A stretch of DNA of 64,000 nucleotides, taken from IMG/VR virus record IMGVR_UViG_3300033402_000312; one strand, given 5' to 3'. This document shows positions 3,579 through 37,996 of the stretch, piece after piece. The notes under the pieces are model-generated. The model saw nothing but the letters and a program-made list of their open reading frames with translations, made no database searches and was not told the DNA's origin. This DNA comes from a virus. Position numbers and translations under genes: made by a program. Within the stretch, counting starts at the first letter, position 1, and every line of letters starts with the position of its first letter.

Positions 3579-3666
3579 GGGGTAGATGGCACAATGGCGT
3601 GCCAGCAGACTGTAAATCTGCCGTCCCTTGCGGACACGGTAGGTCCGATCCCTACCTACCCCACCA
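3579..3666 (+). tRNA. tRNA-Tyr(GTA), class II
   Basis: Acceptor GGGGTAG/CTACCCC+A+CCA; anticodon arm GCAGA-CTGTAAA-TCTGC; long variable arm; T arm GTAGG-TCCGATC-CCTAC. Confidence 0.75.
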
Positions 3667-3684
3667 AGCTTTGGAGCATCAAAC

Positions 3685-3912
3685 ATGCAAGTGGTTCAGA
3701 CGCACCTGGTGAGGAAGACGGAGCACGGAGAAGTCCACACGATATGCTGGCTCGACGTAAAGCCGAACGTGAAGGTTGGCTCCGTGGTGTCCTTGGAAGA
3801 CTCGCCCGGCGAGTGGTGGACTGTGCTGTCCCAAGGCTTCGTGCAGGATTCCTCGCTGATCAACCGGAAATGGGGCCTAGACCTGCCGAAGTCGCAGCGC
3901 CTCGAAAGGTAA
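3685..3912 (+). CDS. hypothetical protein
   Basis: 75-aa ORF with balanced composition directly after tRNA-Tyr; preferred over ORF 3594..4169, which overlaps the tRNA. Confidence 0.4.
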   Translation: MQVVQTHLVRKTEHGEVHTICWLDVKPNVKVGSVVSLEDSPGEWWTVLSQGFVQDSSLINRKWGLDLPKSQRLER

Positions 3913-4170
3913 TCGAATCCGGCAGGGTCACGGAGTGCAGGCACTGCGGCACGAGGCACCCCACGTGGGCGAACGGCACGATTTGTTTCATGGCTTTCTT
4001 CTACATTTGGGAGCGCGACCTGCTCCACATGGCGAAGCAGGACGCAGGATGGAGGTCGGTGGCGCACAAGTTGGGGTTCATGGACGCTAAGATCGATGCG
4101 CCGTGGGCTTTCCCAGATGAAGGACGCTATATAGCGTACAGGCGGATAAAAGACGGTGAGTTTTTGTAAC

Positions 4171-4259
4171 GCGAGCGTGGCGGAATCGGCAGACGCGCAA
4201 CGTTGAGAACGTTGTGGGGTTTTTATCCCGTAGGAGTTCGAGTCTCCTCGTTCGCACCA
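4171..4259 (+). tRNA. tRNA-Leu(GAG), class II
   Basis: Acceptor GCGAGCG/CGTTCGC+A+CCA; D arm TGGCGGAATCGGCAGACGC; anticodon loop TTGAGAA; long variable arm; T loop GGAGTTCGAGTCTCC. Confidence 0.8.
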
Positions 4260-4335
4260 GATTTAAGTTGGGGCGGTGTTTGGCACGGATGCTTTATACA
4301 AGAGTAAACCCCGTGCCGTTGATGTCCCCCACTTT

Positions 4336-4422
4336 GCGCGGGTGGTGGAATTGGCAGACACGCGGGCCTCAGAAGCCCGTGGGGTAAAACCCGTGGAGGT
4401 TCAAATCCTCTTCCGCGCACCA
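4336..4422 (+). tRNA. tRNA-Leu(CAG), class II
   Basis: GCGCGGG...CCGCGC+A+CCA; anticodon arm CGGGC-CTCAGAA-GCCCG; variable arm hairpin; T loop GAGGTTCAAATCCTC. Confidence 0.8.
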
Positions 4423-4457
4423 AGATTCGGGCGGCTTCTGGGTCGCTCCCAGAAGTA

Positions 4458-4548
4458 GGAGATGTGGCGGAATTGGCAGACGCAGCGCCCTTGAACGGCT
4501 CTGAGTCTATTAAGACGGCTCGTGCGGGTTCGACTCCCGCCGTCTCCG
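4458..4548 (+). tRNA. tRNA-Ser(TGA), class II, Leu-type D arm, G73, no encoded CCA
   Basis: Acceptor GGAGATG/CGTCTCC+G; D arm identical to Leu genes (TGGCGGAATTGGCAGACGC); anticodon loop CTTGAAC with one C-T mismatch in the stem; long variable arm; T arm GCGGG-TTCGACT-CCCGC. Confidence 0.6.
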
Positions 4549-4571
4549 TCGCCCGGACGTATTAAGGTGAC

Positions 4572-4940
4572 ATGGCCAAGTTCGAAGATCATTGCCGCGA
4601 CTGCGAGCGCATCCTTGGGGGCAGGCGCGAGGATGTGAACCGCTGGATGGACGAGCTTTTTCGCCAGCATGGCCCAAGGCACCGCAAGTTTCGGCATTGC
4701 TGGCACGGCGTGTGCGAGGCAAGGAAGATTTTCGGAGCGGAGGGCGCGAAAGCGGCAATCATCCACATCGTTCGGGATTGCGGCGCTGTGCCCGACCAGC
4801 GCGTCTACGACGAAACGCAGCTTGGCATCGTGCTCGCGCCGGAGCATGCGACAGGCAGCGCGGACAACGCGGCGTTCGAAAAGTTTAGGATTGCCGTGGA
4901 AGAGGACTTTAAGAAAGCGGTTACGAAGGGGTGTTTGTAA
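4572..4940 (+). CDS. hypothetical protein
   Basis: 122-aa ORF between tRNA genes; protein-like composition; RBS-like AAGGTG upstream. Confidence 0.55.
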   Translation: MAKFEDHCRDCERILGGRREDVNRWMDELFRQHGPRHRKFRHCWHGVCEARKIFGAEGAKAAIIHIVRDCGAVPDQRVYDETQLGIVLAPEHATGSADNAAFEKFRIAVEEDFKKAVTKGCL

Positions 4941-5060
4941 GTGATCTGGAGAAAGATCAACGAATTTTGTTTTCGTCGTTATGGGACGCACCAGCAAGAC
5001 TGCTGGCCCATATACGCCCGGATAGTTTATGCGGTACTGACCTATCTGGTGTAGCAAAAT

Positions 5061-5147
5061 GCGGCTATGGCGGAACTGGCAGACGCACTAGCTTGAGGTG
5101 CTAGCGGTAGCGATACCGTGGAGGTTCGAGTCCTCTTAGCCGCACCA
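5061..5147 (+). tRNA. tRNA-Leu(GAG) second copy, class II
   Basis: GCGGCTA...TAGCCGC+A+CCA; anticodon arm CTAGC-TTGAGGT-GCTAG; T loop GAGGTTCGAGTCCTC. Confidence 0.75.
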
Positions 5148-5155
5148 AATTTGGG

Positions 5156-5228
5156 GGAATAGCATTGTGGAATGCGCCCCGGTTCCAAACCGGGGAGAAG
5201 GCGGTCCGACTCCGCTTCTATTTCGGCA
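5156..5228 (+). tRNA. tRNA-Trp(CCA)-like candidate, possibly degenerate
   Basis: Clean anticodon stem-loop CCCGG-TTCCAAA-CCGGG resembling E. coli tRNA-Trp; T arm GGCGG-TCCGACT-CCGCT; acceptor pairing imperfect. Confidence 0.3.
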
Positions 5229-5430
5229 GTTGCGTTGTTCCCGAGCTTGGCGTCCAAAAGCTGTCATGGAAAGACAGCCTGCCCGGCTTCGCGGTGAGCA
5301 GAGGGCGATACTTCCCCCACAAGTGAGGAAGCTCCGGCATGTTGCTGGTTCGACTCCAGCGCTGTAGCGAAGGGCAAGCCGTGTAGACGGCGCGATTCGC
5401 GGTCGAGACATGCCGACTTCCGCTAGATTT

Positions 5431-5515
5431 GCGACCGTGGCGGAACTGGCAGACGCGCATGGCTTAGAACCATGTGGAGCAGTCCGTGGGGGTTCGACTC
5501 CCTCCGGTCGCACCA
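5431..5515 (+). tRNA. tRNA-Leu(TAG), class II
   Basis: GCGACCG...CGGTCGC+A+CCA; anticodon arm CATGG-CTTAGAA-CCATG; T loop GGGGGTTCGACTCCCTC. Confidence 0.8.
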
Positions 5516-5520
5516 AGATT

Positions 5521-5606
5521 GCCGGGCTGGCGGAATTGGCAGACGCACTCGCCTCAAAAGCGAGCGGTTAACAGCCATGAGGGTTCGACTCCCTCGCCCG
5601 GTACCA
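5521..5606 (+). tRNA. tRNA-Leu(CAA), class II
   Basis: GCCGGGC...GCCCGGT+A+CCA; anticodon arm CTCGC-CTCAAAA-GCGAG; T loop GAGGGTTCGACTCCCTC. Confidence 0.8.
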
Positions 5607-5659
5607 AAATTAAAAGTTGGCATCATCTTTTTGTGGTAGTATTCGGGTAGGAGACTGCC

Positions 5660-5983
5660 ATGAAACCCACGAAAGTTTTAGCTTCAATCCTTCTGATCCT
5701 CTTCCTTGCTGCGCTGGCGGCGGCAGCCCAGAACTATACGGCGTTCTCGGTTGTGGGCGTGCAGCAGACCGCGCCCAATGTCTACACGGCGACGGTCAAT
5801 ACTGTTGTCAAGAACCCGACGAACACGATCCCCCCGGACGGCACCGTGCTGACCATCGCCACAGCGAACTGCACCCACGTGCCCGGCAGGAGCGGCGAGA
5901 ACGCCATCGTGTCGAACGGGCCGCTGGGGCGTGCTCTGTTGTTCGCGAACGGGCCGTCCTGCGCGATCACGGGCATAAAGTAA
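5660..5983 (+). CDS. secreted protein (signal peptide)
   Basis: RBS AGGAG 9 nt upstream; N-terminal MKPTKVLASILLILFLAALAAAAQ signal peptide; Thr/Asn/Val-rich mature part. Confidence 0.65.
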   Translation: MKPTKVLASILLILFLAALAAAAQNYTAFSVVGVQQTAPNVYTATVNTVVKNPTNTIPPDGTVLTIATANCTHVPGRSGENAIVSNGPLGRALLFANGPSCAITGIK

Positions 5984-6267
5984 GCTTGTAAACCCCCCTG
6001 TTTCAAGGTCTTACGGCTGGACGAAACTGCATCCCTGCCTGTATACTGTTGGTATGAGGACACCACAAAGACGAACCGTTGCGGGTGGAATTCCTCCGTC
6101 ACGGTGAGGGTCGTTGTCGAAGTCGGCAGCATGCCCGGCGACTTTTATAAGCCGGGGAGCGTGCGGACAGTCAACGCCTGTAACCTGTACAAGCGCCGTG
6201 CCAGCCCCGAGCGGAAATTCGCTCGAAAATAGTCCATCGTCGGGCACGGAAAGGGCATCAAATAGGT

Positions 6268-6606
6268 ATGGAAAAGCATCTCTACGAAATCCTTGTCCCC
6301 ACCGTGCGGAACGACGGCAGACCGATACACACGAGATTCCACAGGATTTGGGACAGGAAGGTCGAGGCGATCAGCAACGGGTTGACCATCCTCACGCCCG
6401 GCAAGGGCACGTGGGTCCACGAAGGCACGTCCATTCGCGAGCGCATGATCCCCGTGCGGATCATGTGCACGCGGGAGCAGATCGACCAGATCATCGACCT
6501 GACGCTTGAGTATTATTACGACCAACTCGCAGTCATGGCTTACAGGGTGAGCGACGAGATAATCCTGAAGCACCGGGCGGCGGCGAAAGGCGGGAAGAAT
6601 GTCTAG
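6268..6606 (+). CDS. hypothetical protein
   Basis: 112-aa ORF, protein-like composition. Confidence 0.55.
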   Translation: MEKHLYEILVPTVRNDGRPIHTRFHRIWDRKVEAISNGLTILTPGKGTWVHEGTSIRERMIPVRIMCTREQIDQIIDLTLEYYYDQLAVMAYRVSDEIILKHRAAAKGGKNV

Positions 6607-6713
6607 GCGGGGGGAGGGTCTCGGCATCTTCGGGGCGCTTGCAGTCGTGCTCATCCTCTTGGGCTTGATCGCGCTGCTTGCGAACTGCCTCGGCATTTTG
6701 CCCAGCCACTGAT

Positions 6714-6920
6714 ATGTCCAAATCTCCGAAGGCTAAACAACCTGAGTACAATCATTGGGACGAATTTGTGAAGTTCGTCAAGGCGCAAGCCATCCTGTCC
6801 AAAGAATTCCGGGAACAACTCATCCTCAAAATGGGCGGGGGGATGCAAGACGCCCATGAGCGCGGTATCCTAGAGGGAAAGCGTCGGGCTAAATTGGAAC
6901 TCGAAAGAAAAACCAAATGA
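6714..6920 (+). CDS. hypothetical small protein
   Basis: Internal ATG 6714 of ORF 6678..6920; stop overlaps next start (ATGA). Confidence 0.35.
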   Translation: MSKSPKAKQPEYNHWDEFVKFVKAQAILSKEFREQLILKMGGGMQDAHERGILEGKRRAKLELERKTK

Positions 6921-7264
6921 GAATCTTGATCGCTGATGACGAAAACAGTTTGCGCGAATTGCTTGCAGATTTTTTGATCGCTAAGGGTCATGAGGTCGTC
7001 TCCGCGAAAGACGGAGCGGAGGCACTCCGCATTTTCCTCAACGACGAGGGCGAATTCGACTATGTCATAACCGACTATCAGATGCCGCGCAAGAACGGCG
7101 TCGTGCTCATCATGGACATCCGCAAAGCAGTTCCGGGCCAGAAGTGCATCCTCGTCACCGGCGATCCGCCGCAACTCTCTAAGGCCGTCCGCGAGGACGC
7201 GGGCGAATTTCCCGTCTTGCGTAAGCCTTACGACCGCACGGAACTCTTAGGACTGCTCAAATAA
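6917..7264 (+). CDS. stand-alone response-regulator receiver (CheY-like REC) domain protein
   Basis: REC hallmarks: ADDE acidic pair, phospho-acceptor Asp in VITDYQMP, Thr in ILVTG, Lys in LRKPY; no output domain. Confidence 0.8.
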   Translation: MRILIADDENSLRELLADFLIAKGHEVVSAKDGAEALRIFLNDEGEFDYVITDYQMPRKNGVVLIMDIRKAVPGQKCILVTGDPPQLSKAVREDAGEFPVLRKPYDRTELLGLLK

Positions 7265-7324
7265 CCCTCTTCAGTTCCCTAGCTAAACGGCCGTAATTCC
7301 AAAATCCACCCCCTCGGGGTATTA

Positions 7325-8347
7325 TTGGGATATATGGCGAAACCCTATGGGAACCCTGTCGCGTGTGACGAGGCAGAGACTCCGAAGAGACAAACTGTTT
7401 CGGTTGGTGACGATCAAGACCAAGCGTACTACCATTGGTCAAAGCGCAACGGCCTCTACCGCCCCGTGGGGCACACGCAGGACGCCATCCCGGCTGGCAT
7501 CTACGAGATCGACAACGACAACTCCGGCTGGTTCCTGTCCAAGGTGAAGTTCCCGTCCGACACCCTGCTCCGGCTGCCGGGCATGCCCATCGACTACATC
7601 CTCAGCCAGATCGACACCTTCTGGATGCGGGAGGAGCTTTTCAAGCAGACCGGGCTTCTGCACAAGCGCGGCATCCTGATGTACGGCCCGGCGGGATGCG
7701 GCAAAACTTCGATCATCAGGCTTCTGTGCGACGACGTCGTCAACAAGCGCGACGGCATCGTCATCATGGTGACAAACTGCCGCCTCGCCGAGACCGCCCT
7801 CGGCGGAGTCCGCCAGATCGAGTCCCGCCGCCCGATCCTGACCATCATCGAGGACATCGAGACGTTCATGGGGTCGAGCGACGAGTCGTCCTCAGCCCGT
7901 GCGCTCCTGGCTCTCCTCGACGGCGAGACCCAGATCGACCACGTCGTCCACCTCGCGACGACCAACAAGCCCGACGTGCTGGAAGACCGCATCTCCAAGC
8001 GCCCCGGACGGTTCGACCTTGTCATCGGCCTGAACCACCCGGTCGCAGACGCCCGCAAGGCGTACCTTGTCAACCTCCTGCAAGACCATGTGCCCGCAGA
8101 GGAGCTAGAAGTCATGGTCAGCGAGACGGAAGGTCTCGGGCTTGCCCACCTGCGCGAGCTAGTCGCGGCGTCGTACTGCCTCGGCCTCGACCGCAAGGAA
8201 ACCCTCGCCCGCTTGAAGACGAACTTCAAGAAGAAGCTCAAATCCATCGAAGGCAGGGGCAACGTCATGGGCTTCACGGTCAACTTTCCAGAAGAGGCGG
8301 AAGACGGAAGGTTGAAGCTCGATGACAGCGGTGATTCCCATGCCTGA
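7325..8347 (+). CDS. classical AAA ATPase (N-domain + AAA module)
   Basis: Walker A GILMYGPAGCGKTS; Walker B ILTIIEDIE; second region of homology ATTNKPDVLEDRISKRPGRFD (R-x-G-R-F-D). Confidence 0.85.
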   Translation: MGYMAKPYGNPVACDEAETPKRQTVSVGDDQDQAYYHWSKRNGLYRPVGHTQDAIPAGIYEIDNDNSGWFLSKVKFPSDTLLRLPGMPIDYILSQIDTFWMREELFKQTGLLHKRGILMYGPAGCGKTSIIRLLCDDVVNKRDGIVIMVTNCRLAETALGGVRQIESRRPILTIIEDIETFMGSSDESSSARALLALLDGETQIDHVVHLATTNKPDVLEDRISKRPGRFDLVIGLNHPVADARKAYLVNLLQDHVPAEELEVMVSETEGLGLAHLRELVAASYCLGLDRKETLARLKTNFKKKLKSIEGRGNVMGFTVNFPEEAEDGRLKLDDSGDSHA

Positions 8348-9395
8348 TACAAGTGAGTTCACACTGCTCTATGAGCGCTTGGATTCGGCAGACTCAGACC
8401 AAGGCCTATCGTATCCGAAAAATCCGCCTCGCGCACAGTCTGACGAAAAGGTCGCATCCGTGGATGGCACCCAGCTTCTTTCGTCCATGACGAAAAACCA
8501 GTGGGCGGTGCTGCCCGACGACACGTTCACTGCCATCGGCGCTACGGTCTCGCACCTGCCCCCGGCGATCTACACGCTTTCCTCGGACGGCGGCGGCGTG
8601 GTCTACTACAATAAGACGAAAGTCCTCACGGACAAGCTCATCGAACTGGACGACAGCGCTGCCATACGGGTCATCGCGGGGATCGAGACGTTCTGGGAGT
8701 CCAAGGCAAAGTTCGACCGCTTTGGCATCCTGTTCAAGCGCGGCATCCTCTTGTGGGGCCCTGCGGGATCGGGCAAGACAGCCACGGTCAACATGCTGAT
8801 GAACGACCTCGTGGGGCGCGGCGGCATGGTCGTCATCGTGCAAAAACCTTCAGTCGCCATCAAGGGACTCCATGATCTTCGCCGCATCGAGCCAGACCGC
8901 CCCATCATCATCGTTTTGGAAGACATCGAGGAGATGATCGACAACCACGGCGAGCACGGATTGTTGGGCCTGCTTGACGGGGAGCACCAAGTCTCCAACG
9001 TGGTCGTGCTGGCGACGACCAACTTCCCGGAACGCCTCGGCGAGCGCATCATCAACCGCCCCAGCCGCTTTGACGAGATCATCCTCGTGGACATGCCGTC
9101 CGCCAAAGCCCGCTACCGCTACCTGAAGCACGTGCTGAAGGACACCGTGCCGGAGGAGGAGCTTCAGCAGTGGGTCGAGGCGACGGACAAGCTGTCCATC
9201 GCGCACTTGCGCGAATTGATCGTCGCCACGCAATGCCTCGGCCGCCCGTATGCCGAGGTCGTGGACAGGCTGAAGCGGATGAGGATCAAGCCAAACAGCG
9301 ACAAGCTCCGCAAGGCGGAGCCGGGCTTTGACAGCCCGAACGCAGCGGAAGCGGGGAACGCGATTCGCGCAGCGCAGCAAGCAGCGGGGGGATAG
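8322..9395 (+). CDS. classical AAA ATPase, paralog of previous
   Basis: Walker A GILLWGPAGSGKTA; Walker B IIIVLEDIEE; SRH ATTNFPERLGERIINRPSRFD; 26-nt overlap with upstream AAA gene. Confidence 0.85.
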   Translation: MTAVIPMPDTSEFTLLYERLDSADSDQGLSYPKNPPRAQSDEKVASVDGTQLLSSMTKNQWAVLPDDTFTAIGATVSHLPPAIYTLSSDGGGVVYYNKTKVLTDKLIELDDSAAIRVIAGIETFWESKAKFDRFGILFKRGILLWGPAGSGKTATVNMLMNDLVGRGGMVVIVQKPSVAIKGLHDLRRIEPDRPIIIVLEDIEEMIDNHGEHGLLGLLDGEHQVSNVVVLATTNFPERLGERIINRPSRFDEIILVDMPSAKARYRYLKHVLKDTVPEEELQQWVEATDKLSIAHLRELIVATQCLGRPYAEVVDRLKRMRIKPNSDKLRKAEPGFDSPNAAEAGNAIRAAQQAAGG

Positions 9396-9401
9396 AGTCA
9401 A

Positions 9402-9746
9402 ATGGGACTCGATTTTGTCGGCTCAGACGCAAACTGGTCTTACACTGGCTTCAATCGGTTTCGGACGATGCTTGCAAAGGAAGTCGGCATCGACTTGGAC
9501 AGCATGGAAGGGTTCGGCGGTAGCGTTAAGTGGTCTACGCTGCCGAAAGACCCGATCCATTTCCTTCTCAACCACTCGGATTGCGACGGCCACATAACGG
9601 CGAAGCGGTGCGCAAAGATAGCGCCGCGACTGTTGGAGCTTGTGGCAAAGTGGCCCGACGATATTTATGACAAGACCCAAGCGCTACTTCTAGCCGAAGG
9701 GATGAAGGCATGCGCCCAAAAGGGGAAACCCTTGGAGTTTTGCTAG
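9402..9746 (+). CDS. hypothetical protein
   Basis: 114-aa ORF. Confidence 0.45.
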   Translation: MGLDFVGSDANWSYTGFNRFRTMLAKEVGIDLDSMEGFGGSVKWSTLPKDPIHFLLNHSDCDGHITAKRCAKIAPRLLELVAKWPDDIYDKTQALLLAEGMKACAQKGKPLEFC

Positions 9747-9747
9747 C

Positions 9748-10278
9748 ATGGAACGGATCGACCATTTCGCTTACGAGCATGACTTTTTGTCGAACTTCTA
9801 TCCTGTGGCGATTGTCATGGAGGGCGCTGAGTATGGTTCTGTCGAGCACGCATACCAAGCCGCCAAGGTCCTCAATCCTGAGAAGCGCCGCATCCTCACG
9901 CTGGACTTCAACCCGAACCTGACAGCCGGGCAAGCCAAGAAGGTGGGGCGAAACCTTGACTTGCGCGACGATTGGGACGAAGTCAAGGCTCTGATCATGC
10001 GCGAACTCCTGTTCCAAAAGTTTGGGAATCCCGCCTTAAGAGCTAGGCTGCTAGCCACAGGCACCGCCGAACTGGTTGAAGGAAATTATTGGGAAGACCG
10101 CCATTGGGGCGTGTGCTACGGCGGATTGCCGACTGGATTTGATGGACGCAAGTGTAAAAAATGGCCGCACGATCCAGCGGGCGACAACAAGCTGGGACAA
10201 TTGCTGATGGAAATCCGCTTTGAACTTCTTTCTCAGAAGGAATCATGGGGAAGCTCAAACTGGACAAAAACACCTTAG
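9748..10278 (+). CDS. NADAR domain protein (YbiA-like ADP-ribose N-glycosidase family)
   Basis: Motifs FLSNFYP, SVEHAYQAAK, DW..VK..M..LL.KF, LLATG.AELVEG...D..WG, N.LGQLLMEIR align to YbiA/DUF1768. Confidence 0.8.
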   Translation: MERIDHFAYEHDFLSNFYPVAIVMEGAEYGSVEHAYQAAKVLNPEKRRILTLDFNPNLTAGQAKKVGRNLDLRDDWDEVKALIMRELLFQKFGNPALRARLLATGTAELVEGNYWEDRHWGVCYGGLPTGFDGRKCKKWPHDPAGDNKLGQLLMEIRFELLSQKESWGSSNWTKTP

Positions 10279-10517
10279 TTGCTGCGTGCAAAGCCGTTTG
10301 CGTTTTTTGTAAAGAGGGCGTTCCGTACAACGCCGAAAAAGAGCAACATGCAAACCTTTACCATTGTAAGGCTTGGACGATTCGATCTCTGTTTTTGAAA
10401 GCCGAGTCCAGACGCGAGTTCAAGCGCCGCGAAATTGGGGATGAAGCCGTTGACTACCAAGCCGAGCAAGCGGTCGAAAAAACTGGCGATAGCGTTGAGC
10501 GAGCTTTGCACGTATGA
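10245..10517 (+). CDS. hypothetical Cys-containing small protein
   Basis: 90-aa ORF overlapping NADAR 3' end. Confidence 0.35.
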   Translation: MGKLKLDKNTLVAACKAVCVFCKEGVPYNAEKEQHANLYHCKAWTIRSLFLKAESRREFKRREIGDEAVDYQAEQAVEKTGDSVERALHV

Positions 10518-10665
10518 TGAGATGGCCGCTTACGTTCTCGCTTTGCTTGCGGCAGAGCGGGAGCGGGCTTTCAAAGACATCTACGAGTTCGCACTGAGCC
10601 GCCACGGCAAGGGCGGCTATGTCCATTACAGTGAGCTAGAAGCCCTCAAGGAGCCAAGATCATGA
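10435..10665 (+). CDS. hypothetical protein (start uncertain)
   Basis: 76-aa ORF; real start may be internal ATG ~10528 (MAAYVLALL...). Confidence 0.3.
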   Translation: MGMKPLTTKPSKRSKKLAIALSELCTYDEMAAYVLALLAAERERAFKDIYEFALSRHGKGGYVHYSELEALKEPRS

Positions 10666-11102
10666 AAGATATTTGGGTCTGTAAAATCGGCGAAACGGAA
10701 AGAGACAATCTTCCAGATGGGGCTGATTTTCCCATGAGGTTGGTTGTTGCCGAGGCTTATCGACAAATTACGGGACACGATCCAGATTTTTTCTGGTTGG
10801 GGCGGGGAATTGACCGAAGCCGAGCGAATTGTAGCAAACGAGAAGCGGGGAAAGCCATGAGCGACGTCGGCATGACGGAGTTCGAGAGGTTCGCCATGGA
10901 TCACAACGAGCATGCGCACTGCGCTGGGTGCGGGGGCTGCATGCTCGACCCGCGCATCAAGGAATTGCAGGCAGCCCCCGTTTGGTGTATGGGCTGCGTC
11001 AAGGCCATCCATGCCAAGATGCCTGTCGGTGCCCCGCGCCCGTGGGCAGGCGGGGTGATGTTCTGCAACCCCGGAAATTTCTTCTTGAAAATAACCTCTT
11101 GA
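10662..11102 (+). CDS. hypothetical protein
   Basis: 146-aa ORF, ATGA overlap with upstream ORF; Cys/His cluster HCAGCGGCM. Confidence 0.5.
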   Translation: MKDIWVCKIGETERDNLPDGADFPMRLVVAEAYRQITGHDPDFFWLGRGIDRSRANCSKREAGKAMSDVGMTEFERFAMDHNEHAHCAGCGGCMLDPRIKELQAAPVWCMGCVKAIHAKMPVGAPRPWAGGVMFCNPGNFFLKITS

Positions 11103-11127
11103 CAGTTTTCTGTTTTCCTGGTACTAT
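11099..11127 (+). promoter_or_regulatory. sigma70-type promoter P2 (TTGACA-17-TACTAT) upstream of tRNA array 2
   Basis: TTGACA 11099-11104, 17-nt spacer, TACTAT 11122-11127; same extended motif CTTGACAGTTTTCTG as P1. Confidence 0.7.
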
Positions 11128-11174
11128 ATGTGAGTACATGCGGCGGTCTTTGCCGCTATAGGTGCTGCCTTCAA

Positions 11175-11246
11175 ATGAACACGATGCGACCATTTCCGGG
11201 TTTTCGACCGTGCATGCCCAGCATGCGCGGGGTCGCAGGTCTCTGA
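11175..11246 (+). CDS. putative leader peptide (23 aa, MNTMRPFPGFRPCMPSMRGVAGL) of tRNA array 2
   Basis: 4 Pro codons (CCA, CCG, CCG, CCC) and 4 AUG matching downstream Pro(UGG), Pro(CGG) x2, Pro(GGG) and CAU tRNAs; 2 UUU; weak RBS. Confidence 0.4.
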   Translation: MNTMRPFPGFRPCMPSMRGVAGL

Positions 11247-11292
11247 CTGACGGAGACAGCCCCGCGCTGCACGGCGTCGGGGCTTTGTGGGC
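11226..11292 (+). terminator. alternative-hairpin region: CGCGGGG / AGCCCCGCG / CGGGGCT + TTTGTGGG (candidate attenuator)
   Basis: AGCCCCGCG (11258-11266) can pair either with upstream CGCGGGG (11226-11232, inside leader ORF) or with downstream CGGGGCT (11278-11284), which is followed by a T-rich tract. Confidence 0.4.
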
Positions 11293-11359
11293 TGTGAAAT
11301 TCCCAACAAAGAAGATGTTTTAGCCGCCCCCGACAGGTTGTGATGTGTTTGTGATGTGT

Positions 11360-11447
11360 CGGAGCGTAGGCGGGTAAATGGAAGCCCTCCTGCTTTGGAA
11401 GCAGGTGCCTGCGGGCCTTGGGAGTTCGAGTCTCCTCGCTCCGACCA
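11360..11447 (+). tRNA. class II-type tRNA with UGG anticodon and tRNA-Pro acceptor identity (C1:G72, A73)
   Basis: CGGAGCG...CGCTCCG+A+CCA; anticodon arm CCTGC-TTTGGAA-GCAGG; variable-arm hairpin GCC-TGCG-GGC; T arm GGAG-TTCGAGT-CTCC; 88 nt. Confidence 0.55.
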
Positions 11448-11472
11448 AGTTTCATTCGCGAATAGCGAATGT

Positions 11473-11551
11473 CAGGGCGTAGCTCAGTCTGGTTTAGAGT
11501 ACTCGCGTCGGAAGCGAGGGGTCGTGAGTTCGAATCTCACCGCCCTGACCA
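11473..11551 (+). tRNA. tRNA-Pro(CGG)-like (A37)
   Basis: CAGGGCG...CGCCCTG+A+CCA (C1:G72, A73); D arm GCTC-AGTCTGGTTTA-GAGT; anticodon arm CTCGC-GTCGGAA-GCGAG; T arm GTGAG-TTCGAAT-CTCAC. Confidence 0.65.
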
Positions 11552-11563
11552 GTATTATGATAA

Positions 11564-11902
11564 ATGATTGAATCAGAACGAGTTTTTCGTCGTGCCCGGC
11601 AACGAAAGTGGTATCGTGAACGTGGACGTGCCAAACAGATTAAGAAGGCAACCGCCCGAAAGAAGCGGATCATTGCTTGGTATCGAGCGTACAAAAGTAC
11701 GTTGAAATGCTCTCGGTGCTCGGAGAGGCGTTCAGCCGCCTTGGATCACCATCACCGGGACCCAAAAATGAAGGAGTTTAACATTGCCTTTGCTGTAGGG
11801 AATGGTTACTCCATTAAACGGTTGCTAAAAGAAATCGCGAAATGCGATGTCTTGTGCGCTAATTGCCACAGAGTTGAAGAGGCTGAAAGGCGCAAAGTTT
11901 AG
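11564..11902 (+). CDS. HNH homing endonuclease (inside tRNA array)
   Basis: HNH core LDHHHRDPKMKEFN...CDVLCANCHR; basic N-terminus; inserted between two tRNA-Pro genes. Confidence 0.75.
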   Translation: MIESERVFRRARQRKWYRERGRAKQIKKATARKKRIIAWYRAYKSTLKCSRCSERRSAALDHHHRDPKMKEFNIAFAVGNGYSIKRLLKEIAKCDVLCANCHRVEEAERRKV

Positions 11903-11907
11903 GTTTT

Positions 11908-11984
11908 CGGGTTGTAGCGCAGCCTGGTAGCGCGTACGCTTGGGGTGCGTAAGGTCGCGGGTCCGAATCCCGCCAACCCGACCA
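11908..11984 (+). tRNA. tRNA-Pro(GGG)
   Basis: CGGGTTG TAGCGCAGCCTGGTAGCGC...CAACCCG+A+CCA; anticodon arm TACGC-TTGGGGT-GCGTA; matches E. coli proL architecture. Confidence 0.8.
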
Positions 11985-12112
11985 AGTTCAGGCTGAAGTA
12001 GGTACATCGGTAACTACAGGCAGCCGAGAGACAGTCCGAGTCCCGCTGAGCGTCCCGCCGAGCCTACGCGCACCAATCGGTCAAGCGTACAGGGACGAGC
12101 AGCAGCGAGTTT

Positions 12113-12184
12113 TGCGGGGAAGTGAATAGGATCACGAGAGCCTCATAAGCTCTAAATCCGGTTCGAGTCCGGCGTCCGCAACCA
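12113..12184 (+). tRNA. tRNA-Met(CAT)-like, short D loop, imperfect T stem
   Basis: TGCGGGG...GTCCGCA+A+CCA; D arm GTGA-ATAGGA-TCAC; anticodon arm AGAGC-CTCATAA-GCTCT; T region CCGG-TTCGAGT-CCGG; 72 nt. Confidence 0.45.
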
Positions 12185-12333
12185 ATTTGAGGGCTAAATA
12201 TCGGTTGCCCGAGTGCGGAACATGGTTTCGAAAGTGTAAAAAGCAGATGCGCTTAGCCATGGCGGCTCCTAGTGCGTAAAGGGCGGACACGCCCGAGGCA
12301 AAACTGCCTCGCATACCGAAGAGCCACAATTTT

Positions 12334-12936
12334 ATGGAACAGTACCCAGAGATACCCGGCGCGAAGAAGGCTCCCCTCGGGGAGAGGTGCATCGCGTTCT
12401 ACAAGTACGACGGCTCCAACCTCCGGTGGGAATGGAGCAAGAAGCGCGGCTGGCACAAGTTCGGCACGCGGACGGAGCTTTTCGCCCCGGAGCACCCGCT
12501 GTGGGGGCAGGCACTCCCCCTTTGGCGCGGGATCGCGCACGACGTCAAGGATCGCATTTACGCGAGCGACTGGCGGTTCCGCAACATACAGCGGATCACG
12601 GCGTTCACCGAGTTCTTCGGGCCTTCGAGCTTCGCCGGGACGCATGACGAGAAGGAGCCGAAGGAGCTTAGGCTCATCGACGTCTGGCTGTACAAGCACG
12701 GCAGGATGCCGCCCCGGTGGTTCGTGGACACGTTCAGCGACGCGTCGTACGCGGCGCAGGTGGTCTACGAGGGCAACCTGAGCACGGAGTTCATCCGCGA
12801 CGTGCGGGCGGGGAAGTACCCGGTGTGGGAAGGCGTCGTGGCGAAGGGCGACGACTGGATGGCGAAGATCAAGACCGAGGCGTACATGCTGAAGCTCAAG
12901 GAGGTCTTCGGCCTGGACTGGGAAGGGTTCGCGTAA
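12334..12936 (+). CDS. minimal ATP-dependent RNA/DNA ligase-like nucleotidyltransferase (Rnl2-type NTase domain only)
   Basis: Motif I KYDGSN (K24), motif III FTEFFG, motif IV WEGVVAKGD, motif V AKIKTEAY; ~200 aa, no C-terminal domain. Confidence 0.65.
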   Translation: MEQYPEIPGAKKAPLGERCIAFYKYDGSNLRWEWSKKRGWHKFGTRTELFAPEHPLWGQALPLWRGIAHDVKDRIYASDWRFRNIQRITAFTEFFGPSSFAGTHDEKEPKELRLIDVWLYKHGRMPPRWFVDTFSDASYAAQVVYEGNLSTEFIRDVRAGKYPVWEGVVAKGDDWMAKIKTEAYMLKLKEVFGLDWEGFA

Positions 12937-12940
12937 TAAA

Positions 12941-13017
12941 CGGGGCGTAGCGCAGCCTGGTAGCGCGTCTGCTTCGGGAGCAGAAGGCCGTTGGTTCGAA
13001 TCCAATCGCCCCGACCA
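12941..13017 (+). tRNA. tRNA-Pro(CGG)
   Basis: CGGGGCG TAGCGCAGCCTGGTAGCGC...CGCCCCG+A+CCA; anticodon arm TCTGC-TTCGGGA-GCAGA, identical loop to E. coli proK. Confidence 0.85.
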
Positions 13018-13041
13018 ATATTATGCATAGCGAGGTGCATT

Positions 13042-13702
13042 ATGATTCTGGAAATAAGAGCGGCGGAAGGCGGCGAGGACGCGAGGCTCCTCGTCGAGGA
13101 CCAGACGACGATCTACGCCCGCGTGGCGTCGCGGAGGGGTCTTTGAGTTCGAGGTCGTGGAGCAGCGCCAGGGCTTCGCGGTCCTGAGGATCACGGGGCC
13201 GGGCGCGAAGGAGGCGTTCGCGAATGAGTCGGGAGGTCATCGCTGGCAGAGGGTCCCGCCGACTGAGAAGCGCGGCAGGGTGCAGACCTCGACGGTCACC
13301 GTCGCGGTGTTCGACGAACCCGAGGCTTCGGAGTTCAAGGTCAGAGACGCCGACCTCGCATGGGAGACCATGCGGAGCGGGGGCAAGGGCGGGCAGAACG
13401 TGAACAAGGTCGAGACTGCCGTCCGGCTGACCCACAGGCCGACCGGGCTGACAGTGCGGTGCGAGTCCGAGCGGTCGCAGTCGCGCAACAGGCAGACAGC
13501 GCTCGCCACCCTGACCGCCCGGCTGGCTGCGGCGCGGCGGGAGCAGCAGCAGGACGCGCAGGCGACCGACCGGAGGCGGCAGATCGGCACGGGGCAGCGC
13601 GGGGACAAGCGCCGGACGATCCGCGAAAGGGACGGGGTCGTGACAGACCACGTCCTGAACCGGAAATGGCGATACGCGGACTATGTGCGCGGGCTGTGGT
13701 AA
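13042..13702 (+). CDS. N-terminally truncated class I peptide-chain release factor homolog (domains 2-4) with programmed +1 frameshift at 13141-13146
   Basis: Frame 1: ATG 13042 (RBS GAGGTG), [34 protein letters not shown] then CTT TGA; frame 2 continues [13 protein letters not shown]...[28 protein letters not shown]...[38 protein letters not shown] (PxT-like PPT and GGQ motifs, RF1-like); GGAGG 3 nt upstream of CUU UGA as in prfB. Confidence 0.7.
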
Positions 13703-13712
13703 GATAGCTTAT

Positions 13713-13788
13713 GGCGGTGTAGCTCAGTTGGAGAGCGCGGGTCTCATAAACCCGAGGTCGCTGGTTCGTTCCCCAGCCACCGCTACCA
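13713..13788 (+). tRNA. tRNA with CAT anticodon (Met elongator or Ile2/lysidine type)
   Basis: GGCGGTG TAGCTCAGTTGGAGAGC...CACCGCT+A+CCA; anticodon arm CGGGT-CTCATAA-ACCCG; T arm GGTCGCTGGTTCGTTCCCCAGC resembles ileX. Confidence 0.75.
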
Positions 13789-13804
13789 AATTTGGGGAAG
13801 AAAT

Positions 13805-13966
13805 ATGTCTCATCCTGTAGTTTTTGATTGTCCACACTGTGGTCGGAGTTTAGAAGCATCATCAGAAACAGTAGTTCGCTGTCCACATTGTAGGGTAGCC
13901 ATCGATATTCTGACAGACGGAGTGAAGATAGACCCATTTGCAGAAAAATTTCATATTGGCGAGTGA
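13805..13966 (+). CDS. small zinc-ribbon protein (53 aa)
   Basis: ATG 13805; two CPHC pairs (FDCPHCGRS...VRCPHCRVA); start of an AT-rich island containing the next HNH gene. Confidence 0.4.
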   Translation: MSHPVVFDCPHCGRSLEASSETVVRCPHCRVAIDILTDGVKIDPFAEKFHIGE

Positions 13967-13999
13967 GGTCTAGTACTACAGTCAGTGTGACTAAGTTAC

Positions 14000-14548
14000 T
14001 TGACTTTCAAGAAGCATAAGTGGAGAATACCACTTATGCGACAAACAGTTTCAGTCACATGCAATTTTTGTGGCAATCAACTAGATAAACTTGCGAAGTC
14101 CGTAAAATGGGCGAGAGCTAACGGGCAAAAAAATTTTTACTGTAACATGGTCTGTATGCAGTCTGGCCGAACCTTAGGTCGGGTAAAACCGGGTACGGCT
14201 TTGCGTAGTCTTTTATGTCGGTATAAACAGACTGCAAGACGGAGAAAAGTTTCGTTTACGTTAACGGACACTGAATTTGGGAGCTTGGTTACCCAGTCAT
14301 GCTACTATTGCGGCGATGCTCCAGCACAAGTAGCAAGAGCCAAATCTGGCGAGACCTTAAAGTATAACGGGATAGACCGGGTTAATAACTTGTTCGGGTA
14401 TTCTACTGACAACAGCGTGAGTTGTTGCGGTACATGCAATCGTTGGAAATCATCCATGTCATCGGAGGATTTCTTGGCTCAAATCAGGAAAATTTTTGAG
14501 AGGACAACTATGGTCACCAACCTTAGCAAGACCGCCCATACGGCGTAA
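14000..14548 (+). CDS. HNH homing endonuclease
   Basis: CYYCGDAP...YNGIDRVNNLFGYSTDNSVSCCGTCNRWKS HNH core; N-terminal CxxC; low-GC island. Confidence 0.8.
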   Translation: MTFKKHKWRIPLMRQTVSVTCNFCGNQLDKLAKSVKWARANGQKNFYCNMVCMQSGRTLGRVKPGTALRSLLCRYKQTARRRKVSFTLTDTEFGSLVTQSCYYCGDAPAQVARAKSGETLKYNGIDRVNNLFGYSTDNSVSCCGTCNRWKSSMSSEDFLAQIRKIFERTTMVTNLSKTAHTA

Positions 14549-14577
14549 CGTGTGGGCCGGTCACAAGGAGAACCAAA

Positions 14578-15240
14578 ATGTTGTCAAGGACTAAAAAGGC
14601 GGCTGCGCTGTACTTCGAGCCGCTCAAGAAACTGCTGGCTGCTGTGCGGTCGGTGGTGCAGTTCCGTGTGAAGCGCTGGCATGTCGCCATGCGCGGGTGG
14701 AATGAGAAAGACGTTCGCGTCCTGATCTGCCTTGAAGACTCGATCTGGTACTGGGTCGTGTTGGAGTGGCTGTTCTGGGACGTCCAGACGCATGTCTGCC
14801 ACTGCATGGACTGCGTCAAGCTCCCGAAGTTCGTCCGCAACTGGAAGCGGCACTGGGACAAGGACGATCCCGAGTACTTCGCCACGTGGGAGGACTGGTA
14901 CGGCGACAGCTTTCACTCGATCTGGCACTGCCATGTGTGCGATCCCTTGCTTCAGTGGGTGTGGAGGCACAAGGATTTCCACAAGGCGTGGCCGCAGTGG
15001 GAACTGACGTTCGACGAAGCCCGCAAGACCTTCGCGCACGACCCGAAAATCTACGAGTGGGCTGAGAAGGAACTTGCGGAGCACAAGCAGTACGACGCCG
15101 AGAAGCTCGACGAGATTCGCAAGTCCTACAAGGCTGGCGGCCTGACCCGCGAGCAGGCGCTTGAAAAGCTGGGGTGGCACTTCGGGGGCGAGAATCTTGA
15201 AATTCTGCTTGACGAAAAAGAAGGACTAACAGTATCTTAA
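14578..15240 (+). CDS. hypothetical Trp/His/Cys-rich protein
   Basis: RBS AAGGAG 8 nt upstream; 220-aa ORF. Confidence 0.6.
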   Translation: MLSRTKKAAALYFEPLKKLLAAVRSVVQFRVKRWHVAMRGWNEKDVRVLICLEDSIWYWVVLEWLFWDVQTHVCHCMDCVKLPKFVRNWKRHWDKDDPEYFATWEDWYGDSFHSIWHCHVCDPLLQWVWRHKDFHKAWPQWELTFDEARKTFAHDPKIYEWAEKELAEHKQYDAEKLDEIRKSYKAGGLTREQALEKLGWHFGGENLEILLDEKEGLTVS

Positions 15241-15485
15241 TAGATGCACGTGGGACCCCGACCGACCTGACGAGGCAGCTTGTACGAGAGGTGGCGGGCA
15301 GTGCGCATCAACCTGGCACCGAGGCTCATAACGACTGAACAGCCGGAGCCGATGACAACGGGGTCCCACAACTTTTTCAGTCCCAGCCCTGCCTGACTGG
15401 GTGGTTGCGGGGGAGATGTTCCAGCCCATACGATGACTGGATGGCGGGGACGCAATGTTTGGCGGAGACGACTAAATTTTTCTGA

Positions 15486-15562
15486 TGCGGGGTGGAGCAG
15501 TCTGGTAGCTCGCAACGCTCATAACGTTGAGGTCGCCGGTTCAAATCCGGCCCCCGCTTCCA
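15486..15562 (+). tRNA. initiator-like tRNA-Met(CAT)
   Basis: Body nearly identical to E. coli tRNA-fMet (TGGAGCAGTCTGGTAGCTC, GGTCGCCGGTTCAAATCCGGCCCCCGC); unpaired 1:72 (T/T); CCA encoded; anticodon stem CAACG/CGTTG lacks the three G:C pairs. Confidence 0.75.
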
Positions 15563-15578
15563 GTTTATAGCCCGAGGG

Positions 15579-15818
15579 GTGGAACCTGAGACGGCAATTC
15601 CGCCCCTCCATTCTTTGAAAGGGCGCATGGGACAGACTTCGTCAAGCTCCAAAACGACAGCCACCGAACTGGCGAAGATGCTGATGGAGCACCCCGACTG
15701 GGAAGTCGAGGTCGAGGGTTACGCTTGGTTCGGGATGAACGAGCCTACGAAGTATACGTCGTCGCCCGAAGTGGACGAACTGCCCGAGCAGAAAAAGTTT
15801 CTCATCTACACAGTCTGA
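15579..15818 (+). CDS. hypothetical small protein (start may be 15627)
   Basis: 79-aa ORF directly after tRNA; acidic C-terminal half. Confidence 0.35.
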   Translation: MEPETAIPPLHSLKGRMGQTSSSSKTTATELAKMLMEHPDWEVEVEGYAWFGMNEPTKYTSSPEVDELPEQKKFLIYTV

Positions 15819-16090
15819 GTTCAACGCCCGTAGGCTTTGAGCCGAGATGCAGAAGGGCTGGCAGAGCCATACGACCTGATGCAGGACGGGAAAGCTCTGC
15901 AAGTAATTTGTGAAGAGATTCTGCAAATGAGGCGGCATCTCATTTGCAGGGGAGCCGGAGCAAATGCGCGAGGACATGCCTCACCAGCGCGTTCAGACGG
16001 ACACCGGACCGGGTGAAAGCCGTGGCAAGACTGTTTGAGTCTCCGGCGCAAGCTTCGCAGCGGTGTAATGTACGGATACTTCACATAAAC

Positions 16091-16119
16091 CAGTAGGTTG
16101 TGGGTTCGAATCCCACCTT
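16091..16119 (+). tRNA. tRNA 3' fragment (variable loop + T arm + acceptor 3' strand)
   Basis: GGTTGTGGGTTCGAATCCCACCTTCCGAG has perfect T arm GTGGG-TTCGAAT-CCCAC but no matching 5' half upstream. Confidence 0.4.
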
Positions 16120-16669
16120 CCGAGAAATCGGATGTAGCTCAACTGGAAGAGCAACAGGTCAGAAAAATTCCGTGCAGCTTTTTGTTCCCTGCGATTTCAA
16201 GACTGATTTTTTCGTGCCGAGCCGCCCGTGCGTGGCCACGCTAAGGCGCGGGAGAATCCATAAGGTGGCTGTTGTACAGGCCCGCTCGTACGAAGGGCGA
16301 TCTTTCTAGCTAGAGGTTCGTACGAGCGAATACATTTCGGTGCTTCAAGCCGTTCTCGGACGTAAACCGAGTGGAGCGGAACCTCGCACGTTTCCCGGTT
16401 CGTCAAAAACCGGGTGGATTTCTATGACGAAAGCGACCGCGTGCAGCCTCGTTGCTTATGCCTCGGCGTTCGCTGCTGGCGCGACTTTCTGGTACGGAAC
16501 CTTGGCGTCGAAGCCCAAGTTCTATTATCTCGCGGTAGCGTTCTTCTTGTTTGCCGCGAAGTTCCGTTTTCTGGCTTCCGCGCATCTAAAAGGAAAGATT
16601 CAATGAAGCTGACGTCCCAACTCGACTCGTTTAGCGGCCCCTCCGGGGGCCTGCGGTAACGTGTGTCAA

Positions 16670-16745
16670 GGGGACGTAGCTGATGCGGTCTTAGCGCCTG
16701 CCTGAAGAGCAGGAGATGTTGGTTCGACTCCGACCGTCCCCGCCA
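16670..16745 (+). tRNA. tRNA-Phe(GAA)
   Basis: GGGGACG...CGTCCCC+G+CCA; anticodon arm CCTGC-CTGAAGA-GCAGG; T arm GTTGG-TTCGACT-CCGAC. Confidence 0.8.
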
Positions 16746-36970: not shown

Positions 36971-37305
36971 GAGACAGGACGAAGCGGACGCTTACGGTGG
37001 TCATCGAAAACGTGACTGAGGCGCAGGAGATCGCCCTGAACGATCTGTTCGCCACATGGCAGAGCCTCGGCGGGCTTGGGTCCTCCCGCTGGACGGCGTT
37101 CTACGCCGATGGCGACGGCGACTTCAGACCGAAGATCACGGTCAACGGCGAGAAGGCCAAGTTCACAGACCTGCTCCCGCGAAAATTGATGTGGGAGTCG
37201 GACTCCGTGGTCGCTGGCTCCTTCGAACGCAACGACAACGCATACAAGATCGACTTCGACTGGGTCGGGTGGAAGCTTCAGGAGAAGGAAGATGCCGAAA
37301 ACTGA
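36967..37305 (+). CDS. hypothetical protein
   Basis: 112-aa ORF; ATGA overlap. Confidence 0.45.
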   Translation: MRDRTKRTLTVVIENVTEAQEIALNDLFATWQSLGGLGSSRWTAFYADGDGDFRPKITVNGEKAKFTDLLPRKLMWESDSVVAGSFERNDNAYKIDFDWVGWKLQEKEDAEN

Positions 37306-37996
37306 TGGGATTGTTTACCGAATTACGAACATTCGCAACGGTAAAGTGTACGTCGGTAAGACGAACGGGACGATTGCCCGTCGCTGGACAAGACATGTTG
37401 CAGAGGCGAAGAGAGGAACGAACACGCGTCTCTATAACGCCATGCGCAAATACGGTGTGCAGGCGTTCGAAATCAGCCCTATCGAAACGGTCTTGTTTAG
37501 CGGATTGTCTGACGCGGAGCGTGAATGGATTCAAAAACTTAAGTCCCGTGATCCAAAGCTTGGTTACAACATTACGCCGGGCGGGGACGGTGCCGGAGTC
37601 GGACCTGACAACCCGAATTACGGCAAACCTGGACCCAACCGTGGGCGAAAATTTCCACCGGAATTTGGGCAGAAGATTAGCCAAGCAAAGAAGGGCACCA
37701 AGGTCTCTGAACAAGCGCGGCAGAACATCATCAGGGGATTGACAGGGCGAATACCAACGGAGGCAACACGTCAGAAATTAGCCCAAGGAAAACGGGGCGC
37801 TCTCAATCCAAGCTGGAAAAAGCCTCATTCTGCGGCGTGGAAGAGGCAAAACAGCGAAAGATTTAGGGACAGAGTTTGGATTAGCTTGGGCACATCGGAG
37901 ACCAAACGAGTGAAGTCTTCGGAGTTGCAAGAATACTTTGAAAAAGGTTGGATACAAGGGCGATGGAATCGAAGAGCACGCATGCAGTCGAGATAG
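37292..37996 (+). CDS. GIY-YIG homing endonuclease with NUMOD-like repeats
   Basis: GIVYRITNIRNGKVYVGKT (GIY...YVG), R and E catalytic positions; repeated GKPGPNRGRKFPPE / KKGTKVSEQARQN motifs; low-GC island. Confidence 0.8.
   Translation: MPKTDGIVYRITNIRNGKVYVGKTNGTIARRWTRHVAEAKRGTNTRLYNAMRKYGVQAFEISPIETVLFSGLSDAEREWIQKLKSRDPKLGYNITPGGDGAGVGPDNPNYGKPGPNRGRKFPPEFGQKISQAKKGTKVSEQARQNIIRGLTGRIPTEATRQKLAQGKRGALNPSWKKPHSAAWKRQNSERFRDRVWISLGTSETKRVKSSELQEYFEKGWIQGRWNRRARMQSR

Follow-up and report, generated by a model that had tools for sequence, protein, structure and literature searches.

The virus record IMGVR_UViG_3300033402_000312 (IMG/VR) contains, embedded in a cluster of tRNA genes, a small gene for what appears to be a ligase nucleotidyltransferase (NTase) domain standing alone. 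We analysed a 64-kb stretch of this DNA, hereafter the window, which is part of an 894,233-bp contig on which the exact protein is recorded; to our knowledge, an 894-kb genome would surpass the largest published huge-phage genomes. The gene (12334–12936, + strand) starts with ATG and encodes 200 amino acids (aa), and we refer to it as the mini-ligase gene. A longer antisense open reading frame (ORF) of 250 aa (12253–13005) overlaps it and was dismissed as an artefact of high GC: the + strand gene is favoured by conservation, by the fold and by gene calls in public data. The window content is phage-like, with a tRNA island, PolA, a 5′–3′ exonuclease, a clamp loader and many ORFs without a family match.

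The tRNA island (3579–16745) comprises 16 tRNA genes called by ARAGORN, 13 of them confirmed with Rfam and all on the + strand, as is the mini-ligase gene. It also holds HNH endonucleases, a NADAR gene, two AAA ATPases and a release factor (RF) gene. A tRNA-Met(CAT)-like gene (12113–12184, +; 37.2 bits with Rfam tRNA) lies ~150 nt upstream of the mini-ligase gene, and tRNA-Pro(CGG) (12941–13017, +; 67.5 bits) begins 4 nt past its stop codon, so that both ARAGORN and Rfam agree with an earlier note on this DNA, which had set the gene between these two tRNAs and beside the RF homolog. Three ARAGORN calls fall below the Rfam gathering score and may be atypical or degenerate: Tyr-GTA (3579–3666), Trp-CCA (5153–5224, 72 nt) and Pro-TGG (11360–11447, 88 nt long, its anticodon starting at position 37). 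A promoter-like site is found at 11099–11127, with no + strand terminator up to 14200; taken with the 4-nt gap to tRNA-Pro, this points weakly to co-transcription with the tRNAs. The mini-ligase gene is probably co-transcribed with the array, and there is a faint suggestion that tRNA processing frees its mRNA.

All the ligase motifs that the earlier note had read from the translation (KYDGSN, FTEFFG, WEGVVAKGD and AKIKTEAY) are in place. Residue conservation was counted over 156 representatives, covering the family down to ~35% identity. A 156-sequence hidden Markov model (HMM) aligned all motifs to T4 Rnl2; only its alignment was used, as the E-values relate to a 5-sequence database. Motif I (KYDGSN, residues 24–29; 12403–12420, +) aligns to EKIHGTN (K35) of T4 Rnl2 and contains K24, the predicted AMP-accepting lysine. 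The earlier note had made its reading depend on this lysine, and it is found in 155/156 sequences, with D26 and G27 each in 156/156 and N29 in 148/156. A motif Ia-like arginine, R46 (GTR; 12469–12471, +), corresponds to R55 of T4 Rnl2 in the profile alignment; the position is R in 150 of the 156 and K in five. Motif III (FTEFFG, F91–G96; 12604–12621, +) was aligned by hhalign and hmmsearch to VFGEFAGP (E99) of Rnl2, its E93 being present in 156/156 and G96 in 154/156. Motif IIIa (LRLID, with I/F115 and D116; 12667–12681, +) aligns to FYVFD (F119, D120); D116 is kept in 155/156, and at position 115 F is found in 87 sequences and I in 58. Motif IV (WEGVVAKGD, W165–D173; 12826–12852, +) aligns to AEGYVLK (E204, K209), with E166 and G167 each in 155/156 and K171 in 151/156, and motif V (AKIKTEAY, A177–Y184; 12862–12885, +) aligns to IKCK (K225, K227), with K178 in 155/156 and K180 in 154/156. 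Motifs I, III, IIIa, IV and V thus occur in order, with the conserved acidic and basic residues, in the pattern of the covalent nucleotidyltransferase superfamily. When the family profile was compared by hhalign with single sequences (T4 Rnl2 and a second ligase of the window, described below), motif III alone gave a local match, and a weak one. The catalytic residues have been fully conserved under long-term selection.

The AlphaFold 2 (AF2) model of the 200-aa protein has a predicted local distance difference test (pLDDT) score of 92.2 and contains the NTase fold, two antiparallel sheets around a nucleotide pocket. Motif I is preceded by no more than 23 residues, and the protein ends 20 residues past motif V, with a single helix (182–199). 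Pfam and the AF2 model give no accessory domain, neither the C-terminal domain of Rnl2 nor an N-terminal OB. The claim of a ligase-type NTase domain lacking a C-terminal domain is upheld by the fold, by motifs I, Ia, III, IIIa, IV and V, and by the relatives, and the protein is a complete ligase NTase core. Such a core might also be a covalent nucleotidyltransferase that does not ligate, one that adenylylates or caps RNA 5′ ends, modifies another molecule or serves as a decoy, binding or sequestering broken RNA ends. It has no accessory domain to position a 3′-OH strand, the family has invariant features of its own beyond the classical motifs (Y4, I7 and the segment F100-x-G102-x-H104), and the NTase domains of relatives, when isolated, perform no more than part of the ligation reaction (PMC1807946). 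We nevertheless regard a non-ligating enzyme as quite improbable.

The affinities of the protein were traced through its relatives (we number the homolog-bearing loci L001–L100 and the proteins P0xxx). The Pfam model PF09414 (RNA_ligase, gathering cutoff 27 bits) does not match the window protein even at E ≤ 1 and is passed by 1 of 31 close homologs; it is passed at 27.9–40.5 bits by P0111, P0142, P0145, P0192, P0232, P0262 and P0281. The PHROGs family phrog_548, ‘RNA ligase’, is matched by the member in L050, which is 50% identical (E 7e-11), and by ORF354 of Xanthomonas phage XacN1 (E 2e-22), the latter over profile positions 6–246 of 341, leaving the C-terminal part uncovered. The best match in BFVD, at a template-modelling (TM) score of 0.84, is 204 aa long and named ‘RNA ligase domain-containing protein’, and some members of the family are already auto-annotated under that name. 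RNA ligases are consistently better structural and profile matches than DNA ligases. A capping-enzyme identity was rejected because of low structural scores, and no fused domains were recognised in the longer members (244–302 aa). The 200-aa protein is best placed in a subfamily that has the NTase domain only and borders on PF09414, within the Rnl2/PF09414 lineage.

The family is large. A metagenomic collection of 5.8 billion proteins yielded 765 homologs at E ≤ 1e-3; among the matches listed, nearly all are 198–206 aa long and labelled ‘hypothetical’, and many are on contigs of 200–900 kb. When 1.84 billion cluster representatives were searched exhaustively with an HMM, 828 clusters (50% identity) matched at E ≤ 1e-3, almost all of 195–250 aa. 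These numbers, the near-invariant motif residues and the pLDDT place the gene far beyond chance. Among viruses, the family occurs on 71 IMG/VR contigs at 38–82% identity, which dereplication at 90% reduces to 55 loci; a subclade at least 51% identical to the query accounts for 36 of the 55. GenBank huge phages with a homolog are LR756511, LR756502, LR745206 and LR745208 (485–642 kb), and homologs are also found in Lak-B megaphages and in the cultured jumbo phage XacN1, whose ORF354 is annotated ‘hypothetical’ and has a NAD+ synthetase (ORF356) two genes downstream. Copies are also found in chromosomes or metagenome-assembled genomes of Planctomycetota: Planctopirus hydrillae (L086), Gimesia, Gemmata, Pirellulaceae and the complete chromosome of Ca. 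Uabimicrobium (L093), the loci including L087–L100. They are 35–45% identical and have an extra C-terminal tail of ~40 aa, and through them the family extends beyond phages. In L074–L078 only the first 42 codons remain (69% identity; the L075 match is at ~10001–10126), abutting a 557-aa minus-strand gene; we rejected these 42-residue matches as fusions or split genes and treat them as remnants of a deleted gene.

Proximity to tRNA genes recurs in the nearer subclade of the phage members. Among the 55 dereplicated loci a tRNA gene lies within 1 kb in 19 and within 3 kb in 25, and tRNAs are on both sides in 15. On our estimate that tRNA arrays make up only a few percent of such genomes, this enrichment is strong. 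The flanking tRNAs vary by lineage (Met/Pro, Thr/Gln, Val/Arg, Cys/Leu, Arg/Lys, Asp, Ala and His), their orientation relative to the mini-ligase gene is the same in 377 cases and opposite in 4, and the gap to the next tRNA is 2–5 nt in L001, L008 and L010. All of the tRNA-proximal loci lie in the subclade of at least 51% identity, where 25 of 36 have a tRNA within 3 kb. As a separate observation, the tRNA island of L007 has two tRNAs with CTA anticodons (5066–5142 and 5780–5857; amber suppressors, called ‘Pyl’ by ARAGORN), which suggests TAG recoding in that lineage.

So tight a placement in co-oriented tRNA arrays could mean that the enzyme matures phage tRNAs, joining pieces of their transcripts after, for example, removal of an intron or spacer, and some of the ARAGORN tRNAs are indeed odd in length or below the Rfam threshold. 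However, the tRNAs of the window are contiguous and intron-less, neither a group I intron nor a split tRNA being found with ARAGORN or Rfam, and many family members have no nearby tRNA genes; of all the alternatives we consider, this is the least probable. Genes for a 5′–3′ exonuclease and PolA also flank the mini-ligase gene, and it might accordingly belong to the phage replication module, sealing DNA nicks or RNA–DNA junctions such as those of Okazaki fragments. Against this, the synteny with replication genes is seen in close relatives only, whereas the linkage to tRNAs spans more lineages; the OB domain and motif VI that DNA ligases need are not present; RNA ligases match better by structure and profile, as said above; and separate gp30-like DNA ligases lie 3–8 kb from members in three dereplicated loci (L026, with its duplicate L027, L028 and L037). 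A role in DNA sealing thus seems unlikely.

In our judgement the gene product is very probably an active covalent nucleotidyltransferase or ligase. RNA is taken as its substrate because the structural and profile affinities lie with RNA ligases, and with moderate confidence we favour a compact, ATP-dependent ligase core for RNA repair, of Rnl2/PF09414 descent, that re-seals tRNA or other structured RNA. The analyses show the fold, the conserved catalytic residues, the lack of further domains, the breadth of the family and its recurring tRNA and RNA-repair surroundings; we infer ATP use, an RNA substrate, a tRNA target and the need for a partner. The most plausible target would be tRNA or another structured RNA of translation. 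Repair of tRNA against anticodon nucleases, as suggested by the earlier note, may reasonably be proposed. If the enzyme follows the mechanism of its superfamily, K24 would attack ATP to give ligase-(lysyl-N)-AMP, the AMP would pass to a 5′-phosphate RNA end to give AppRNA, and a 3′-OH would attack the AppRNA, sealing the break. In this way the mini-ligase could re-seal tRNA (or other structured RNA) cut by ribonucleases of the host or of a competitor, and so sustain the phage translation apparatus. As the protein has no substrate-binding domain, probably either the fold of the RNA would itself hold the ends together or a separate protein would take on end recognition and end healing; we think that the mini-ligase probably needs a partner. 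The tRNAs of jumbo phages commonly go with Rnl1 or Rnl2 ligases, kinases and phosphoesterases (PMC7824862, PMC9503650), and a jumbo-phage survey gives three Rnl2 paralogs for XacN1, with ORF354 possibly among them (PMC7824862).

Several results weigh against an RNA-repair ligase. The assignment as a ligase is drawn from fold, relatives and motifs: the 200-aa protein has no Pfam, PHROGs or NCBIfam match and no relevant sequence match in the PDB by phmmer, and a 31-sequence profile found nothing relevant in the PDB. The proximity to tRNAs, being confined to one subclade, is in part inherited synteny; the distant phage subclade (<51% identity) has no tRNA linkage among its dereplicated loci, and the Planctomycetota loci have neither tRNA neighbours nor a conserved operon, neighbour clustering giving no universal partner gene there. 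The gene is dispensable, since the phage lineage of L074–L078 has lost it. End-healing enzymes (polynucleotide kinase, phosphatase, 2H or RtcB) were not recognised by Pfam scans of ~44 ORFs of the window, and they adjoin only some of the relatives. The NTase domain of T4 Rnl2, taken by itself, has a defect in overall nick sealing. The isolated NTase domain of the Deinococcus ligase DraRnl is impaired in both nick sealing and adenylylation (PMC1807946), and dependence of the mini-ligase on an RNA fold or a partner is expected on this account. Our literature search found no biochemical study of any member of the family or of such a stand-alone ligase, and no minimal, smallest or single-domain RNA ligase turned up.

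Neighbour clustering found no universal partner gene among the phage loci. The clearest RNA-repair neighbourhood is L050 (9279–15860), where a heal-and-seal cassette surrounds a family member, in the order metallophosphoesterase, mini-ligase, metallophosphoesterase, homing endonuclease (minus strand), Rnl1-like ligase and P-loop polynucleotide kinase. A phrog_547 metallophosphoesterase, of the same kind as in L050, is near members in six dereplicated loci, two of which have it at a distance of 51–98 nt. In four loci a small HAD protein similar to the phosphatases associated with polynucleotide kinases is near the member. In the window, the NADAR-domain gene (9748–10278, +; PF08719, E 6e-23) is an upstream neighbour conserved in six dereplicated loci, and NAMPT and NMNAT-Nudix genes are near members in 3–4 (NAD genes in L013, L016, L020 and L043). 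These NAD and ADP-ribose genes could possibly be linked to NAD-dependent processing of RNA ends or to countering NAD depletion. Upstream of the NADAR gene is a tandem pair of paralogous AAA ATPase genes (7325–9395; 340 and 357 aa), conserved among the close relatives in eight dereplicated loci. Homing endonucleases are recurrent neighbours of the family.

The RF gene downstream of tRNA-Pro (13044–13702, +) encodes an RF1-like protein without domain 1 and, from frame analysis and its Pfam and NCBIfam matches, is read through a +1 frameshift of the prfB type. The ORF listed at 13157–13702 (181 aa) is only part of it; the true start is an ATG at 13044. The frameshift site (13129–13149; CGG AGG GGT CTT TGA G) has CTT TGA at 13141–13146 with a Shine–Dalgarno-like AGGGG upstream, and its prfB-type sequence is CGGAGGGGUCUUUGAG. 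Frame 0 meets the TGA, past which the gene is read in the +1 frame as far as 13702. An identical 18-nt site is found in L005, L010, L011 and L029. The reconstructed 219-aa protein aligns unbroken to residues 89–300 of Thermotoga maritima RF1 (E 3e-48) and keeps a PxT-type tripeptide; a UGA frameshift site that would control an RF1-type (PxT) factor is unusual and unexpected. Other PDB matches are RF2 (6e-25) and PrfH (2e-17), and in NCBIfam the prfA models score 188–189 bits, with 93.6 bits for TIGR03072 (PrfH) against its cutoff of 166.65. A PrfH identity was ruled out on these values. Two relatives of the RF gene differ: in L008 (~10930–11000) the frame-0 piece ends in RRGL and a stop codon that is not the usual CUU UGA, with no CTTTGA, and in L049 (~470–600) an in-frame stop stands in the same frame with no frameshift. 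These variants could reflect readthrough or a reassigned stop codon.

The company of this gene raises the idea of a ribosome rescue-and-repair pair, in which the domain-1-less RF1 would free a ribosome stalled on damaged rRNA or tRNA and the mini-ligase would re-seal the cut RNA, as an ATP-dependent analogue of bacterial PrfH–RtcB2. That pair is established as one of rescue plus ligation (PMC9304027), and the RF resembles PrfH in lacking domain 1. An RF gene is within 3.5 kb of the mini-ligase gene in 8/55 dereplicated loci and within 7 kb in 11/55, sometimes upstream and sometimes downstream, so that the adjacency has outlived rearrangement, and peptidyl-tRNA hydrolases (PTH2) are near members in four other loci. 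Yet the RF is far more like RF1 than PrfH and keeps its tripeptide, it is absent near most family members, and both genes may be mere residents of the tRNA island. In addition, cuts of the colicin E3 type leave a 2′,3′-cyclic phosphate and a 5′-OH. Healing enzymes would have to act on such ends before an ATP-dependent ligase could join them, and the ~44 ORFs scanned show none. We therefore consider a rescue pair very unlikely. Slightly less likely still is an NTase-only ligase completed in trans, with a separate protein to recognise its substrate. In the boldest form of this reading that protein would be the adjacent frameshift-controlled RF1 without domain 1, giving an ATP-dependent phage counterpart of PrfH–RtcB2 that releases ribosomes stalled by ribotoxin damage and re-seals the rRNA, or the tRNA bound to the ribosome. 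If the reading were true with any partner, the family would be the smallest natural polynucleotide ligase core, found in huge phages and Planctomycetes.

The second ligase of the window (37948–39180, +; motif KIHGQN) is a complete RNA ligase, as the earlier note had it, but of the Rnl5 (DraRnl/NgrRnl) type rather than Rnl2-like, with an N-terminal OB and a C-terminal NTase domain. Pfam finds PF21189 (the PHA02142-type OB) at residues 22–86 (E 7.6e-11) and PF09414 at residues 215–400. The protein matches phrog_968 end to end, it matches TIGR02306 (DraRnl) with E 5e-35, which is under the cutoff of that model, and its only sequence matches in the PDB are to NgrRnl of Naegleria. It lies 25 kb from the mini-ligase gene in the replication module, adjoined by a GIY-YIG endonuclease and with a clamp-loader gene in the same part. 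Its best annotated phage homolog is in Tunturiibacter phage Tunturi_3 (PP885686.1; host Acidobacteriota), which hints weakly at the environment of this high-GC phage or at its host range. The end of the GIY-YIG gene (37292–37996) overlaps the start of the ligase ORF, and two HNH/EndoVII-like homing-type genes lie within the tRNA island (11564–11902 and 14000–14548); these homing-type endonucleases suggest traffic of mobile elements in both ligase neighbourhoods.

If active, the mini-ligase would be the shortest polynucleotide ligase scaffold in nature, ~200 aa with the NTase domain only, and would indicate how far an RNA ligase can be pared down, or have its parts supplied in trans. It represents a large, so far uncharacterised family of huge phages and Planctomycetes, with ~830 clusters (50% identity), and would be a new component of the islands of tRNA, release factor, PTH2 and NADAR genes that huge phages appear to use in guarding translation. 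RNA-ligation technology could also profit from so compact an enzyme. Since phages are already known to pair their own tRNAs with RNA ligases, the gain in concept is modest, unless the enzyme proves to depend on a partner or to act in ribosome repair.

The mini-ligase would act in the manner of the Rnl2 and Rnl5 ligases; the nearest known systems differ from it chiefly in what surrounds the NTase core. T4 RNA ligase 2 and trypanosome REL1 (Rnl2, PF09414) have a C-terminal domain of ~90 aa that the mini-ligase lacks, a domain which in Rnl2 proper serves nick sensing and step 2 and which the phrog_548 matches omit. Motif I is KxDG in the mini-ligase and KxHG in Rnl2, and the loops are shorter, giving 200 aa against ~245 aa for the Rnl2 NTase domain. 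In the Rnl5 enzymes (Deinococcus DraRnl and Naegleria NgrRnl) the accessory domain is instead the N-terminal OB (PF21189), absent from the mini-ligase and present in the second ligase of the window; the N-terminal module of DraRnl is important for nick sealing and adenylylation (PMC1807946).

The T4 pathway in which Rnl1 and Pnkp repair tRNA anticodon loops is alike in that a phage ATP-dependent ligase is tied to tRNA biology, and the neighbours of the relative in L050 include phosphoesterases, a polynucleotide kinase and an Rnl1-like ligase. In bacterial Pnkp/Hen1 (Rnl4) the ligase is completed in trans, the ligase module of Pnkp needing Hen1; the mini-ligase has neither a Hen1 methyltransferase nor a fused kinase/phosphatase, and its structural similarity to these enzymes is much lower. 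The RtcB2–PrfH module likewise sets an RNA ligase gene beside a homolog of class-I release factors without domain 1 (PMC9304027), but the mini-ligase belongs to another superfamily with another chemistry, the RF here is RF1-like, and the pairing is seen in only 8–11 of the 55 loci. The minimal ATP-dependent DNA ligases (Lig E type and the Chlorella virus ligase) and the RNA ligases of the c12orf29 type are likewise small and share the same NTase core, and the list of structural matches includes 4d05 (249 residues), 2q2t (293) and the Yasminevirus c12orf29 9c6l (242).

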